Origin: a virus
Lineage: Duplodnaviria > Heunggongvirae > Uroviricota > Caudoviricetes
DNA length: 6,955 nucleotides
Direction: 5' to 3' (one strand)
IMG/VR virus record: IMGVR_UViG_2684622618_000019
Made by a program: the position numbers and the translations under genes. Below the pieces are notes generated by a model. That model worked only from the letters and a program-made list of their open reading frames with translations, did no database searches and was not told the DNA's origin. Below are positions 2,144 to 6,955 of the stretch, piece after piece; position 1 is the first letter of the stretch; every line of letters starts with the position of its first letter.

Positions 2144-3805
2144 TTATATGAAAAAAACCGCATATTCTTTCTTTTTCGGTTCCGGGTTAAGGGACATCAG
2201 GGAGACCGCATTGAACAGCGCCATCAGCGGGTCAATTTTTCCCCGTCCACTGGCCTGTTTGGTGATAAGAATGGCGTTACCTTTAGGCTCCACCCGGGCA
2301 TTGCCGACACACCAGGCCATCAGGGGCTGGTCACCATGCACCAGCACCCCTTCAGCCAGTTTGCGCTCGGTGGTTTTAATGGCCCCGCCCAGTTTCCAGC
2401 CCTGGCTTATCCCCACCACAATTCCGTCGGGGATCCCGGCTTCCGCCAGTGAATCCAGAATCTGCCCCACCCCTGACGGGTCAATACCGATATGGTCCAG
2501 TAACTCAGCCTCATGAATGCGACGCACATATTCCGCCACTTCCGCCGTGTCATCCCCGACACGCCGGACAATGGTCATATCTCCACAGGCAACAAGATCC
2601 TGAAACCGGGACGCCTCGCTCTTCCGTCGGACCACCGCGGTTTCATGCGCCCAGGCATGGCCCCAGCCCAGCCATTCGCGGGTTTCCCTGTCACGGCCAA
2701 TCACGTACATTCCCAGCAGATCATCCAGGCCCCCGCCGTCAATCCCCACCGTCACCACATCAGCGCGCTGCAGGATATCGTCCAGGCTGACGCGCCTGCC
2801 CTGCTGCTCCCAGAAATCCGCACCCGCCCAGCGGTCAGAACGCAGGGCAAGACCAATTTCCACATTGGCATGTTTTGACATGAAGCCACGAAATGCTTCC
2901 TCACCAGCCTCCCGGGCTTTACGGTACTCCCGGTACAGAAAAGCCTCATCCACCGAATAACCGAGATTCGGGTTAACCATGGCGAGGTTTTCCATCAGCA
3001 GGTGAGCCCCGCTTTCCACCATTTCAGGAGGATGCTCAAAAATCACCGGCAGAAAGTGCGGATCATGAATTTTGCCGTCACGGACATCCCGGGCGTACTG
3101 CAGTTTCTGTCTGAACACCCCGGCTGGCGGCTCATTCGACTGGGTGGTCGTATACACCACAAACCCTTCCGGGCGGGAGGCAAGGCCGCCTATGGCTTCA
3201 CGTAACATGTCCTCCGCTTTGTACTGCTTGCCAAATAACCACAGTTCATCAATCAGCGTCCCCACGGACTTGATACCGGATACCGTATTCGGATCGGCAG
3301 CCACCACCTTCAGGGTGGTGTCCGTCACCCTGTGGGTGATGGTCCGGATATGTGTCTGCACCTGACAGAGGTCATCCAGATCATCGTCCCGTCGTACCAT
3401 ATCCCTGGCAGGGTTGAAGGCGTTAGCCGCCACCTCCACGGTCGGGGCCAGAATGGTGTAGCCCGCCGCCTGCCGCCAGTTCAGTAACAGCGCCGTCATC
3501 ATGATCCCGGCAGCCAGCGTGGACTTGCTGTTTTTCTTGGGGATAAGGATAAAAACTTCCTTGATATGGCGTACACCGGTCTGCGCATCGTAGGAGCCAA
3601 ACAGGGCCGCCACCAGGTCAAACACCCACTGTGCGCAGGACTCCCCGAACGTCGGGCTGCCCGGTGCATCCACAATCCGCAGTTGTTTAAAAATCGCCAG
3701 GGCATGTGCGGCCTGCTCCGGATAAATCGGAGCCGGAATAATCGACAGCCCCTTTTTCAGGCGCTCTGCCCAGTCCGGGCAGGCCGTGCTCCACACAGGT
3801 ATCAT
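2144..3805 (-). CDS. terL: terminase large subunit (Terminase_1 / HK97-type)
   Basis: 553-aa ORF. ATPase-type motifs IPKKNSKSTLAAG and LIDELW, nuclease-domain motifs VGIDGGG and KIDPLMALFNA. ATG 3805-3803 overlaps the terS stop as ATGA; GAGGG SD upstream. Confidence 0.9.
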   Translation of the reverse strand: MIPVWSTACPDWAERLKKGLSIIPAPIYPEQAAHALAIFKQLRIVDAPGSPTFGESCAQWVFDLVAALFGSYDAQTGVRHIKEVFILIPKKNSKSTLAAGIMMTALLLNWRQAAGYTILAPTVEVAANAFNPARDMVRRDDDLDDLCQVQTHIRTITHRVTDTTLKVVAADPNTVSGIKSVGTLIDELWLFGKQYKAEDMLREAIGGLASRPEGFVVYTTTQSNEPPAGVFRQKLQYARDVRDGKIHDPHFLPVIFEHPPEMVESGAHLLMENLAMVNPNLGYSVDEAFLYREYRKAREAGEEAFRGFMSKHANVEIGLALRSDRWAGADFWEQQGRRVSLDDILQRADVVTVGIDGGGLDDLLGMYVIGRDRETREWLGWGHAWAHETAVVRRKSEASRFQDLVACGDMTIVRRVGDDTAEVAEYVRRIHEAELLDHIGIDPSGVGQILDSLAEAGIPDGIVVGISQGWKLGGAIKTTERKLAEGVLVHGDQPLMAWCVGNARVEPKGNAILITKQASGRGKIDPLMALFNAVSLMSLNPEPKKKEYAVFFI

Positions 3806-4365
3806 CCGTTGCCCTCATTATCATTATTCACCACCAGGCGGGGTGGTGGTGGCACCGCAAAACGGTTAGCCGCTTTTTTCGCCGCGTCACCTTTTGCCGA
3901 TTTTTTACCGGCATCCCCTTTTTTGTGGTGCGTGAACTGCGCCAGCTTATAAGCCGCATCCAGCGCCAGCCTGGGGTCGGTATTAATGTTCTCCACCAGA
4001 AGACGCCCCATCGCTTTCACCGGATCGGGAAGACCGTCCTCCATATACTCAATACCAGGAGATATCACCACGGGCGGTGGCATCTCCGGATTTGTTTCGT
4101 CCGGCTGTGGTATTGCAGCCGCCTCACGGCGACGGGGTTTATCCTCCGGCTCTGATTTTTTCTGCCGATAAACAGGAACCTCATCCACCTCCACCGTCTC
4201 GCACTGTTTACGGGCTATAAACGCAAGCACCTCCGGATCTTTTGCCAGCTGCGAGCCTTTAACCCTGGCTGTCTTCGCCGAATAACCGGCGGCAAGGGCT
4301 GACGCTGTTTTGTTTTTCCCGGACATGAGCGCCAGCGCAAATTTTCGTTTTTGCGTTGTCAGCAC
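3802..4365 (-). CDS. terS: terminase small subunit (Terminase_2-like N-terminal DNA-binding region)
   Basis: 187-aa ORF with GTG start at 4365 preceded by GGGAGGAGG. N-terminal motif KRKFALALMSGKNKTASALAAGYSAKTARVKGSQL is typical of this terS family. Translationally coupled to terL by a 4-nt overlap. Confidence 0.8.
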   Translation of the reverse strand: MLTTQKRKFALALMSGKNKTASALAAGYSAKTARVKGSQLAKDPEVLAFIARKQCETVEVDEVPVYRQKKSEPEDKPRRREAAAIPQPDETNPEMPPPVVISPGIEYMEDGLPDPVKAMGRLLVENINTDPRLALDAAYKLAQFTHHKKGDAGKKSAKGDAAKKAANRFAVPPPPRLVVNNDNEGNG

Positions 4366-4439
4366 AGCCTCCTCCCGGGTCCAGAACGCACTCAGCCGGG
4401 TATGGTTCAGCCCATTTTTCCCGGCGTCTCATGCCGCAA

Positions 4440-4563
4440 ATGTTAACTGCTGCCTGGTTAACATTTGCTGAAAAAGCCTGTTAACATTTTTTCCGCACAA
4501 CAAACTGAATAATAAAGATAAAAACCGCAAAAATGCCCGGGCAGCCAGTTAACATGTTAACTG
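4440..4563. promoter_or_regulatory. array of CAGTTAACAT-type half-sites including an 18-bp perfect palindrome; candidate terminase recognition (cosB-like) region
   Basis: Half-sites at 4440-4447 (ATGTTAAC), 4457-4464, 4480-4487 (GTTAACAT) and the perfect palindrome CAGTTAACATGTTAACTG at 4546-4563. All sit in the 289-bp HNH-terS intergenic region. Confidence 0.35.
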
Positions 4564-4654
4564 CCCTGAAACGGGAATTTTTTCTCTGCGTGAGAGGGGG
4601 CGCGGTGTCCAGGGCGATCGTTTTTTTTCGCCGGATGATCCCCCCCGGGTCTGG

Positions 4655-5020
4655 TCACAGGCCAGTGATTCCGTCGGCCCTGAGCGTGCCATCAGGAAGC
4701 TCAGGCAACGTCGGATCAGGCATACCACTCGCCGCTTCACTCGCTGACTTCTGGCGATGGCATTCAGTACAGAGGGTCCAGAGGTTCGTCTCCTCATTAC
4801 CACCACCGAACTGAAGTGCAATGCGGTGATCGAGTTCACTGTCACAAAGGTCAACCACGCGTCTACAGAGACAACAGTGTCCGGCATCCCTCCGCCAGAT
4901 ACGACGTTTGAGGGAAACCCGGGCACTGCCACTGACACGACGCTGTTCCCCCCTCAGGACATTTATCCGCCGGGTGTTCAGAGTTTTGATTCTGCCCGGT
5001 AACGTACGAAGCACAGCCAT
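4655..5020 (-). CDS. HNH endonuclease (phage packaging-associated)
   Basis: 121-aa ORF; HNH core HCCLCRRVVDLCDSELDHRIALQFGGGNEETNLWTLCTECHRQK. ATG at 5020 with GAGGA 6 nt upstream. Position immediately upstream of terS is typical of HK97-like cos phages. Confidence 0.85.
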   Translation of the reverse strand: MAVLRTLPGRIKTLNTRRINVLRGEQRRVSGSARVSLKRRIWRRDAGHCCLCRRVVDLCDSELDHRIALQFGGGNEETNLWTLCTECHRQKSASEAASGMPDPTLPELPDGTLRADGITGL

Positions 5021-5061: not shown

Positions 5062-5289
5062 ATGTCATCGAAAAACCGGCCCCGCAGAACAACAACCCGC
5101 AACATCCGATTTCCAAACCAGATGATTGAACAAATTAACATCGCTCTTGACCAGAAAGGTTCAGAAAATTTTTCTGCGTGGGTCATTGAATCTTGCCGCC
5201 GGGAGCTGGCAGCAGACATAAAATATGCCCGTCAGTTGACTATAAAAAAGAATGATACACAGTATGCTCTGCGATGGCTGTTCATATAA
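5062..5289 (+). CDS. YlcI/YnfO-like small protein (DUF3950-like), copy A
   Basis: 75-aa ORF, ATG 5062 with GAGGAAA SD. The core NIALDQKGSENFSAWVIESCRRELA is conserved at protein level with the fragment at 5738-5848 despite many synonymous nucleotide differences, which argues for real coding. Family name is from memory of E. coli prophage YlcI, not a search. Confidence 0.7.
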   Translation: MSSKNRPRRTTTRNIRFPNQMIEQINIALDQKGSENFSAWVIESCRRELAADIKYARQLTIKKNDTQYALRWLFI

Positions 5290-5452: not shown

Positions 5453-5468
5453 TTGAACAGATTCCAGT

Positions 5469-5642
5469 TTCTTCCACCATCGCACCGGACGGGCGACCAT
5501 GAGGGGAGAACGCCGCGCTCCGTTTACGCGGTAAACCCCGGTGTGTATCGTTTTTGATTATCCCCGCACACTCTCGCAGAGGAGTCTCCCTGTCGGGCTG
5601 CGGTCTCTGTTAATGCAGGAATACGGCGACGATACGGCGCAT
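5469..5642. repeat. 174-bp conserved non-coding element, copy A
   Basis: Direct repeat of 6286-6459 with 9 mismatches in 174 bp (about 95% identity). Flanking sequence on both sides is unrelated between copies. No reading frame is conserved between the two copies. Confidence 0.9.
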
Positions 5643-5651
5643 CAGCAAAAC

Positions 5652-5687
5652 TTAGTTCAGGCACTGAGTGCGGATATAGTCCTGTGC
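5652..5687 (-). CDS. 3' end of a second Rz-like i-spanin gene, truncated by the gap
   Basis: Minus-strand translation ...AQDYIRTQCLN-stop (TAA at 5654-5652) parallels the C-terminus of the Rz at 6723-6955 (...LQEYIRTQCIN-stop); the nucleotide stretch 5662-5684 matches 6733-6755 at 22 of 23 positions. Confidence 0.55.
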   Translation of the reverse strand, partial: AQDYIRTQCLN

Positions 5688-5737
5688 NNNNNNNNNNNNN
5701 NNNNNNNNNNNNNNNNNNNNNNNNNNNNNNNNNNNNN
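5688..5737. other. run of 50 N: assembly or scaffold gap of unknown true length
   Basis: Exactly 50 N. Genes on both flanks are truncated by it and cannot both fit into 50 bp. Confidence 0.95.
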
Positions 5738-5848
5738 AATATCGCCCTTGAACATAAAGGTTCCGGTAACTTTTCAGCGTGGGTTATTGAAGCCTGCAGA
5801 AGAAGGCTGTCAACAGAGCGTTCGGGTATGAATTACATAATTAAGTAA
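5738..5848 (+). CDS. YlcI/YnfO-like small protein, copy B, C-terminal part only (5' end lost in gap)
   Basis: Frame starting at 5738 gives NIALEHKGSGNFSAWVIEACRRRLSTERSGMNYIIK-stop (TAA 5846-5848), matching the core of the 5062-5289 protein. No in-frame start exists in the visible sequence left of the gap. Confidence 0.65.
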   Translation, partial: NIALEHKGSGNFSAWVIEACRRRLSTERSGMNYIIK

Positions 5849-5977
5849 CATGGTGTTCACAGAACACACAGTTACCGGACACATCAGTTTTCCATTCGTC
5901 CCCCGGCAGTACAGGCTTCCCGTCTGACGGGATAGCCTGAAAAAACACAGAAAATTATTTGTTATAATTAATATAAC

Positions 5978-6118
5978 TTACTCAAAAAAAAGCGACGAGA
6001 AAATCAGCATCAACGAGCAATAAGCGCCAATACGTGATAACAAATGGCAGCCATATTTATCTGCAGTATAAGCAATGGACAGGATAACCACACCAGAAAC
6101 CGTCAGCATAAAATCCAT
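5978..6118 (-). CDS. 46-aa hydrophobic small protein (candidate membrane peptide); not in the supplied ORF track
   Basis: ATG 6118-6116 with GAGGAAG 8 nt upstream, TAA at 5980-5978. Product MDFMLTVSGVVILSIAYTADKYGCHLLSRIGAYCSLMLIFSSLFFE has two hydrophobic stretches. Sits in an AT-rich insert present only in copy B of the module. Confidence 0.4.
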   Translation of the reverse strand: MDFMLTVSGVVILSIAYTADKYGCHLLSRIGAYCSLMLIFSSLFFE

Positions 6119-6285
6119 TTGAACTTCCTCGGACAAAATCGACTCATCTAAAGATTTACAGCTCTTTTTATTATCAATATGTTAAAAGTAAAATAAACAG
6201 ATGTTCAATAATACGAATACAAAAACGTGCTGAAAATCAATGAATCCATTTCTGTGTTATCAATTAATAGTGATAAACATCCGGC

Positions 6286-6459
6286 TTCTTCCACCATCGC
6301 ACCGGACCAGCGACCATGAGGGGACAACGCCGCGCTCCGTTAACGCGGTAAACCCCGGTGTGTATCGTTTTTGATTATCCCCGCACACTCGCGCAGAGGA
6401 TTCTCCCGGTCGGGCTGCGGTCTCTGTTAATGCAGGAATACGGCGACAATACCGCGCAT
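6286..6459. repeat. 174-bp conserved non-coding element, copy B
   Basis: See copy A (5469-5642); constant offset of 817 bp. Confidence 0.9.
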
Positions 6460-6474
6460 GAATAATAAGGTCGC

Positions 6475-6699
6475 TCAACACACTGGCTGTAATGCAGCGG
6501 ATACCATGCGGCATTTAGCGGCATTCATCGTACACTCAACGGTTAGCTCTTCATTCGTGGCATTCACCTGAAAGGTCCTGGAGTGTAATTGCGTACATTT
6601 ACCACTGAACGAACCTTCAACAAGAACACGACCACGCTGCAAAATACGGAACGGAATTGTTCCCTGAAAAGGCTTTACGGTTACCAATAATTTCTTCAT
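6475..6699 (-). CDS. 74-aa hypothetical protein inserted between Rz and the 174-bp element
   Basis: ATG 6699-6697 with GGAGA SD 6 nt upstream; the track's TTG at 6717 is less likely. Product MKKLLVTVKPFQGTIPFRILQRGRVLVEGSFSGKCTQLHSRTFQVNATNEELTVECTMNAAKCRMVSAALQPVC has 4 Cys and no recognised family. Absent at the equivalent position in copy A, where the Rz stop lies 9 nt from the repeat. Confidence 0.5.
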   Translation of the reverse strand: MKKLLVTVKPFQGTIPFRILQRGRVLVEGSFSGKCTQLHSRTFQVNATNEELTVECTMNAAKCRMVSAALQPVC

Positions 6700-6722
6700 G
6701 CATTCTCCGAATAACAAAAATA

Positions 6723-6955
6723 CTAGTTAATACACTGAGTGCGGATATATTCCTGAAGCATTCTCAATGCTGCCTGGTCGCTGATGATTCCGTCTCTGAT
6801 ACCGAGAACGTTTCGTCCAGCAACCGGAGAGAGTTCGACGGCGGCATCATTGCCCACGCCGGAGGTGCCGGTGGCTTCACGCACGGTACCGGGGCAGGTG
6901 GCGTTGATCCGCAGGCGCTTACGACCAGCGGCAACATCAGCACGCAGAGTTTCAT
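6723..6955 (-). CDS. Rz: i-spanin Rz, C-terminal 76 codons (5' end beyond window)
   Basis: Minus-strand frame from 6953 reads ...TGTSGVGNDAAVELSPVAGRNVLGIRDGIISDQAALRMLQEYIRTQCIN-stop (TAG 6725-6723), a lambda-Rz-like C-terminus. Contains Rz1 embedded in the +1 frame. Confidence 0.8.
   Translation of the reverse strand, partial: ETLRADVAAGRKRLRINATCPGTVREATGTSGVGNDAAVELSPVAGRNVLGIRDGIISDQAALRMLQEYIRTQCIN
6764..6955 (-). CDS. Rz1: o-spanin Rz1 lipoprotein, embedded in Rz
   Basis: 63-aa ORF MKLCVLMLPLVVSAC... with lipobox VSAC and the proline-rich stretch CVKPPAPPAWAMMPP, close to lambda Rz1. ATG lies at the window edge, so upstream context is unseen. Confidence 0.8.
   Translation of the reverse strand: MKLCVLMLPLVVSACGSTPPAPVPCVKPPAPPAWAMMPPSNSLRLLDETFSVSETESSATRQH

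Follow-up and report, generated by a model that had tools for sequence, protein, structure and literature searches.

The moron concept and the position of bor are textbook elements of lambdoid phage biology, and bor is expressed in lysogens. As applied to lambdoid late operons, the concept is said to go back to Juhala and Hendrix. In annotated phages of the lambda type (ev243) and of the 933W type (ST2-8624), Rz is followed by bor on the opposite strand and then by a conserved 180-nt element. By the definition of a published review, morons are independent transcription units (PMC3594210). Two further groups of proteins come close to the locus described here, namely the PHROG 2571 proteins of about 280-286 aa and the Acb2/Tad1-type anti-defence proteins. 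We analysed a 6,955-nt stretch of a virus record (the window), in which a 74-codon ORF lies between Rz and the same conserved element, in other words at the bor position of lambda-type and 933W-type phages (where bor is on the opposite strand), as the initial annotation had noticed for lambda. The ORF (6475-6699, minus strand) is a true accessory gene of lambdoid prophages of E. coli, coding for protein and kept by selection. Beyond that, we consider it rather likely that the gene is transcribed late, and that its product is an all-beta protein of the PHROG 2571 domain type acting as a binding module.

The minus-strand genes follow the usual late-operon order of lambdoid prophages across the window. 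From the right end, Rz/Rz1 is followed by the 74-codon ORF, the 180-nt element and a 46-codon hydrophobic ORF; farther along the window are a ylcI/ynfO-type gene, which is read in the other direction, and genes for an HNH endonuclease, for the small and large terminase subunits and for a protease-capsid fusion. The Rz (i-spanin) gene is present as its 3' part, which runs off the window (6723-6955, minus strand; stop codon TAG at 6725-6723; PF03245 Phage_lysis), and the 63-aa ORF for Rz1, the o-spanin lipoprotein, is embedded in it (6764-6955, minus strand; PF06085 Rz1, E = 5.6e-21). The right-hand part of the window is 100% identical to a prophage of E. coli O157:H7 PV15-279 and to prophages of many other Shiga-toxigenic strains. 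In the PV15-279 contig (L001), the full Rz gene (5766-6233) matches PF03245 Phage_lysis with an E-value of 1.5e-39. The same contig shows, outside the window (2926-4772), IS1203 interrupting the endolysin gene, so that this copy of the lysis cassette is defective, and an antirepressor-like gene and a 48-aa ORF are found between endolysin and Rz. The 46-codon ORF (5978-6118, minus strand; MDFMLTVSGVVILSIAYTADKYGC...) is strongly hydrophobic, lies within a stretch of 36% GC and bears the RefSeq name hypothetical protein WP_000347013.1. It had no match in Pfam or PHROG and could encode a small membrane protein or a toxin-like peptide. The YlcI/YnfO (DUF3950) gene at 5062-5289 (plus strand; PF13132, E = 3e-17) runs opposite to the late operon, and on the plus strand the conserved element sits downstream of it; a partial second copy of this gene (5738-5848, plus strand) directly follows a scaffold gap.

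This gap, a run of 50 Ns at 5688-5737, separates two prophage fragments, the left one of which contains another Rz 3' end and another element copy. A repeat finder aligned element copy A (5463-5642, minus strand) with element copy B (6280-6459, minus strand) as a direct repeat of 180 nt with 94% identity, so that the length of 174 bp given in the initial annotation has to be revised; the Rz 3' ends repeat as well (5653-5684 versus 6724-6755, 88%). The copy A junction (5643-5687, minus strand) consists of the final 12 codons of an Rz gene that is truncated by the N gap, its stop codon TAA (5654-5652) and a 9-nt spacer (5651-5643), and it thus represents the empty-slot allele. In copy B, the Rz stop and the element are 263 nt apart (6460-6722). 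Both distances had been read correctly by the initial annotation, and both recur in independent viral contigs. Since the two fragments have separate Rz 3' ends and ylcI-type genes of different sizes, copies A and B most likely belong to two different prophages of one genome joined in the scaffold. If so, their adjacency would be a product of scaffolding and not a tandem arrangement.

The 263-nt segment missing from copy A has a GC content of 43.7%, compared with 57-59% in its flanks (45.3% for the ORF itself, 57.1% for Rz and 59.4% for the element). The difference between the two copies is real, but its description as an insertion into copy B goes further than the data, as the direction of the change is not established and slots bearing the ORF are about three times as common as empty ones (73 versus 24). 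The flanks of the segment display neither a target-site duplication nor terminal inverted repeats, and we accordingly rejected a transposable insertion as its origin.

Several lines of evidence identify the ORF as a gene. It starts with ATG at 6699 and ends with TGA at 6477-6475, 23 nt (6722-6700) separate it from the Rz stop, and a Shine-Dalgarno motif GGAG (6708-6705), conserved in relatives, lies 5 nt before the start codon. RefSeq lists the product as hypothetical protein WP_000735655.1; the ORF is an annotated CDS in all RefSeq records examined, and 'hypothetical protein' is the label of nearly all matches listed. Among 5426 complete E. coli genomes, 1245 have a match to the 263-nt segment, at 1631 places in all, and the exact 74-aa protein occurs on more than 1000 contigs. 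Comparison with diverged copies by the Nei-Gojobori method yielded dN/dS values of 0.26 (74 codons, dS 0.52), 0.33, 0.51 and 0.21. We also sampled IMG/VR by fetching 120 contigs with a 30-mer from the neighbouring element. The ORF was present in 73 of them, intact at 74 aa in 67, in frame at 71 aa in three and truncated to 64 aa in three, which means that the reading frame is kept in 70 of the 73 copies. Copies with 56-100% identity agree in start codon, Shine-Dalgarno motif and length. The more frequent allele has an Rz gene extended by nine codons, the TGA of which forms an ATGA overlap with the start codon of the ORF. The proposal of a coding ORF with a Shine-Dalgarno motif of its own on the late-operon strand is thus confirmed, and its close homologues maintain the frame. 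Disrupted alleles do exist: in an O55:H7 copy (L009, 1522-1756), a 10-bp duplication leads to a premature stop, three IMG/VR copies stop at the same codon, and in one match (H91, NZ_CP176406.1) an IS629 element is annotated at the truncated end of the ORF. The existence of such frameshifted and IS-interrupted alleles indicates that the ORF is dispensable in cryptic prophages. A terminator-like hairpin (GGAACAATTCCGTTCC then GTATTTTGCA) lies inside the ORF at 6648-6663 (minus strand); such sites are no more numerous in the region than shuffling of the sequence would produce.

The initial annotation had suggested that a survey of the position downstream of Rz might reveal a variable cargo slot, and this is what we found. 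With the element as an anchor, we determined how far it lies from the Rz stop in the 113 contigs of the window-type set that include an Rz end. The slot is empty (9 nt) in 24 contigs and holds the 74-codon ORF (227-263 nt) in 73; the rest have a Rha-like protein of 180-188 aa (10 contigs), a KilA-N-like protein of 173 aa (five) or two other small ORFs (one). A second set of contigs, fetched with a different variant of the element, contains Bor on the opposite strand with gaps of about 440 and 504 nt, genes for Rha-like and KilA-N-like proteins and for proteins of 103, 124 and 162 aa, a possible toxin-antitoxin pair, near-empty junctions and a 315-nt spacer devoid of a long ORF. Consequently, the bor position is a well-defined, hypervariable slot running from the Rz stop to a conserved and probably structured element, and it could be mined systematically for accessory genes.

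The element itself matches 398 phage records at 76-100% identity, among them phages of the lambda, HK97-head and 933W types. Rfam contains no match for it, and a single element sequence folds no better than its shuffles. For a set of 19 diverse copies aligned on the late strand, however, an RNA-structure analysis produced a multi-helix consensus in which 97.3% of cells are paired, five pairs are changed on both sides and many GC pairs turn into GU; none of 500 shuffles reaches the observed pairing or covariation, and the mirrored structure on the other strand has 85.4% of cells paired. The hairpin after CACACCGGGUUUU changes its sequence completely between element subtypes and stays a hairpin. 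These comparisons suggest that the element, a candidate structured RNA, is a structured segment of the late transcript at the right edge of the slot. The evidence is suggestive rather than conclusive, since the alignment scored is also the one that yielded the structure, and its sequences are related to one another. We rejected the reading frames across the element as genes on both strands, given that copies A and B have different stops and that the plus-strand frame of 35-58 aa is broken in a 933W-type phage. Known prophage sRNAs (AgvB, AsxR, Esr41, STnc100 and others) were likewise discarded as the identity of the element, there being no Rfam match for them in the window; AgvB and AsxR belong to the PR' moron site, and the Pas sRNAs, which are located near holin/lysozyme and sialate-esterase genes, lie upstream of Rz. 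A translation across the element (6260-6514, minus strand) matches PHROG 6954 'Rz-like spanin' with an E-value of 2e-13, and some phage records label this stretch a spanin. As the frame differs between copies, the label is probably an annotation artefact.

As to the protein, an AlphaFold2 model built from an alignment of 24 sequences has a mean pLDDT of 90.3 and a pTM of 0.76 and is all-beta, with six strands and one short helix. The N-terminus is MKKLLVTVKPFQG; residues 2-8 are modelled as a beta strand of the fold and not as a signal peptide, and the first cysteine is at position 35. We detected no signal peptide, lipobox or transmembrane segment. The only fold neighbours of the model are generic beta-sandwiches, so that the fold would at most indicate a binding module and does not identify a ligand. 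Searches of Pfam (E-values up to 1), NCBIfam and PADLOC returned no match, and a sequence search of the PDB gave no useful one; known anti-defence proteins, including Acb2/Tad1 and others with solved structures, are similar to the protein neither in sequence nor in fold. The literature search found nothing on the WP accession of the ORF or on PHROG number 2571.

The sole profile match of the ORF is PHROG 2571 (E = 2.8e-28, 99.9 bits), and it covers profile positions 100-172 of 291. Phage PhiR46_1 encodes a full-length member of 286 aa (XSB42772.1), which covers positions 1-291, and its gene is likewise flanked by Rz and the conserved element. In BLASTP the ORF product is 34% identical to residues 101-153 of this protein, and hhalign relates the ORF family to the 286-aa family with a probability of 98.3%. 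The ORF does not have the full-length architecture; judged by these sequence comparisons, it represents a stand-alone form of the central domain of the 286-aa PHROG 2571 proteins. The structure prediction for the 286-aa relative was unusable (pLDDT 47). The concern that the ORF might always be part of a longer known gene does not apply, as the longer form is a small E. coli subfamily of 286 aa with no assigned function. An exhaustive profile search of 1.8 billion representatives returned 47 matches, the sources of which were named by a second search. Stand-alone relatives of 71-82 aa are found in prophages of Salmonella, Citrobacter, Cedecea and Yersinia, all labelled 'hypothetical', and F17, Q21, G33-K34, Y43 and V45 are the conserved positions of the wider family. 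One match of 602 aa (P0073), with six matched stretches and the cystatin-typical QVVAG motif, was judged to be a repeat-inflated chance similarity.

Seven of the eight kinds of context examined have the relatives in the part of the late operon that is bounded by Q and the terminase genes. Those of Citrobacter, Cedecea and several Salmonella prophages lie between the lysis genes and the terminase, whereas in Salmonella diarizonae and a further Salmonella assembly the gene is flanked by those for the Q antiterminator and the holin; the Yersinia relative is in an accessory or early-type region near ParDE, AntA and Erf. The family is therefore not tied to Rz, and the varying cargo positions of its members argue against a dedicated role in lysis. 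In two of the three Salmonella contexts shown (L016 and L018), a gene of the Acb2/Tad1-hairpin type (PF24729, E = 6e-17, above the curated cut-off) lies directly upstream of the relative, and in L265 its place is taken by an unassigned 97-aa gene. The next gene after the 81-82-aa relatives is, in the Citrobacter contexts and in most of the Salmonella ones, a conserved 67-aa gene of PHROG 4280. The relative, the PHROG 4280 gene and the upstream gene may form a small accessory gene cluster (L016 4650-5508, L010 5001-5511, L265 3650-4508).

The preferred reading has to be weighed against several others. The idea that the protein is a small metal-binding or disulfide-stabilised one was prompted by the four cysteines of the window copy, which are C35, C56, C63 and C74 (C56 and C63 were originally misnumbered as C55 and C62). 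Among close relatives C35 is indeed invariant and C56 at least 90% conserved. However, C63 and C74 are confined to one subclade, C56Y occurs in five and C63F in one of the 73 viral-contig alleles, and in the wider family there is no conserved cysteine column, position 35 being A, V, L, I, T or S and the 286-aa proteins carrying S there. CxxC spacing is absent. In addition, proteins that have no export signal stay in the reducing cytoplasm. The metal or disulfide fold is therefore not supported and is in our view the least credible of all these explanations. It might also be argued that the ORF is all that decay has left of a formerly full-length 286-aa PHROG 2571 gene, namely its middle domain, and that it retains no function of its own. 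Such an origin would account for the alignment being limited to the middle of the profile, for the presence of a full-length member at the same site in PhiR46_1, for the high hhalign probability and for the frameshifted or IS-interrupted alleles. Nonetheless, conservation of start, Shine-Dalgarno motif and length over the whole identity range, together with dN/dS of 0.2-0.5, is not what would be expected of decay; the stand-alone form is known from five genera or more, the 286-aa form having turned up in E. coli only; the stand-alone protein has a confidently predicted fold; and the 263-nt segment is too short to include remains of the N- or C-terminal domain. We thus regard the remnant explanation as very unlikely.

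A different possibility is that the ORF encodes a lysis accessory factor, co-translated with Rz and modulating spanin function or the timing of lysis. It lies immediately after Rz/Rz1 on the same late transcript, and the ATGA overlap in most alleles suggests translational coupling. Spanins, though, act in the envelope, and the protein has none of the segments or signals that would place it there. The 24 empty slots are located behind an Rz C-terminus of the same type, and relatives are found away from the lysis genes (between Q and holin, or in the Yersinia accessory/early region) or separated from Rz by other genes. This makes a lysis role unlikely, even if coupling to Rz in most alleles is by itself equally compatible with a lysis-related role as with the conflict role considered below. 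By analogy with bor, the ORF might instead be a lysogenic-conversion gene, expressed from the repressed prophage to the benefit of the host. The slot is the bor site of lambda-type and 933W-type phages, the composition of the segment is foreign to its flanks, and the ORF is very common in pathogenic E. coli, O157:H7 included. On the other hand, it is on the late strand, no sigma-70-like site was seen upstream on that strand, it overlaps Rz in most alleles, and a product lacking an export signal cannot be a surface factor. We find conversion of this kind highly improbable.

Returning to a late-transcribed accessory gene for a binding module, the sequence of events might be as follows. The ORF, directly following Rz/Rz1 and provided with the GGAG ribosome-binding site, would be read as part of the Q-dependent late operon. 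The product would be made in the cytoplasm and only when the late operon is transcribed. It would most likely be a non-enzymatic binding module, and by binding a component of the host or of a competing phage during lytic growth it might serve in counter-defence or exclusion. The ORF is presumably dispensable for lysis and virion assembly, given that prophages with the same flanking Rz gene and element go without it. We propose a role in phage-host or phage-phage conflict tentatively, on the basis of the habit of occupying accessory slots and of the adjacency to an Acb2/Tad1 gene in some Salmonella prophages. Against it, PADLOC defence and anti-defence models gave no match, the Acb2/Tad1 neighbourhood is seen in one lineage only, with Rha/KilA-N-type regulators, HNH nucleases and unknowns as the other neighbours, and all sources label the family members 'hypothetical'. 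It is even more speculative that the 71-82-aa all-beta proteins as a whole, with the PHROG 2571 central domain, constitute a hitherto unrecognised family serving phages in counter-defence or in the exclusion of other phages. They would travel as swappable late-operon cargo of enterobacterial lambdoid phages, many prophages of Shiga-toxigenic E. coli among them, and bind a host immune component or signal. The remaining probability goes to some other accessory function.

The ORF is already known to databases as a hypothetical protein and as a member of a PHROG of unassigned function. What is added here is the link between its domain and the 286-aa proteins, the wider group of stand-alone relatives with their contexts, the lack of support for a cysteine-based fold and the map of the slot. 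About one complete E. coli genome in four has a match to the gene, O157:H7 and other Shiga-toxigenic strains among them, and the gene would be transcribed together with those for lysis on induction, yet its family has no Pfam or NCBIfam entry. If it turned out to be a counter-defence or exclusion factor, a small and easily testable family would be added to the phage-host arms race, and this would help to explain prophage compatibility in strains that harbour many prophages.

How, then, does the locus compare with the systems described earlier? Like Acb2/Tad1-type anti-defence proteins, the ORF product is small and comes from an accessory region of a temperate phage, and some of its Salmonella relatives are encoded directly next to an Acb2/Tad1-hairpin gene; it differs from them in having no sequence, profile or fold similarity to Acb2/Tad1. 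With bor (lambda Bor/Iss), it shares the interval between Rz and the element and the status of an accessory gene missing from some relatives. However, bor runs against the late operon and its product is a lipoprotein bearing a lipobox, whereas the ORF is on the late strand and its product has no lipobox, signal peptide or Pfam match, in line with the initial annotation, which had noted the late strand and the missing lipobox. Bor and the ORF product are similar neither in sequence nor in fold, and a visual comparison with Bor sequences from the same slot in other phages also found them unrelated. The likeness to morons is partial. The segment is extra DNA that stands out in base composition and that some genomes have and others lack within the same conserved surroundings (copy A against copy B; of the IMG/VR slots, 24 empty and 73 occupied), and, as with morons, it lies downstream of the late promoter. 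To this extent its description as moron-type holds. Morons, however, are transcription units of their own, whereas consensus scans, which are a weak test, found no promoter-like site upstream of the ORF on the minus strand and no terminator-like site after its stop, and in most relatives the ATG overlaps the Rz stop, so that the ORF is often translationally coupled to Rz. For want of a promoter-like site or terminator, we would rather describe the ORF as late-operon cargo than as a self-contained moron. The stand-alone relatives (for example P0100, P0104 and P0071) have the same domain and the same conserved residues at 25-40% identity. Many of them differ from the ORF by a 9-residue insertion after strand 1, none has its cysteines, and the PHROG 4280 gene that follows relatives in Citrobacter and most Salmonella contexts is absent after the window ORF. 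Finally, the long PHROG 2571 proteins, which are labelled 'hypothetical' too, share with the ORF a homologous beta domain and the neighbourhood of Rz and the element. They have serine where the ORF has cysteine, and the domain, which is all that the ORF encodes, is preceded in them by some 95 aa of helical sequence and followed by some 100 aa of alpha/beta sequence.
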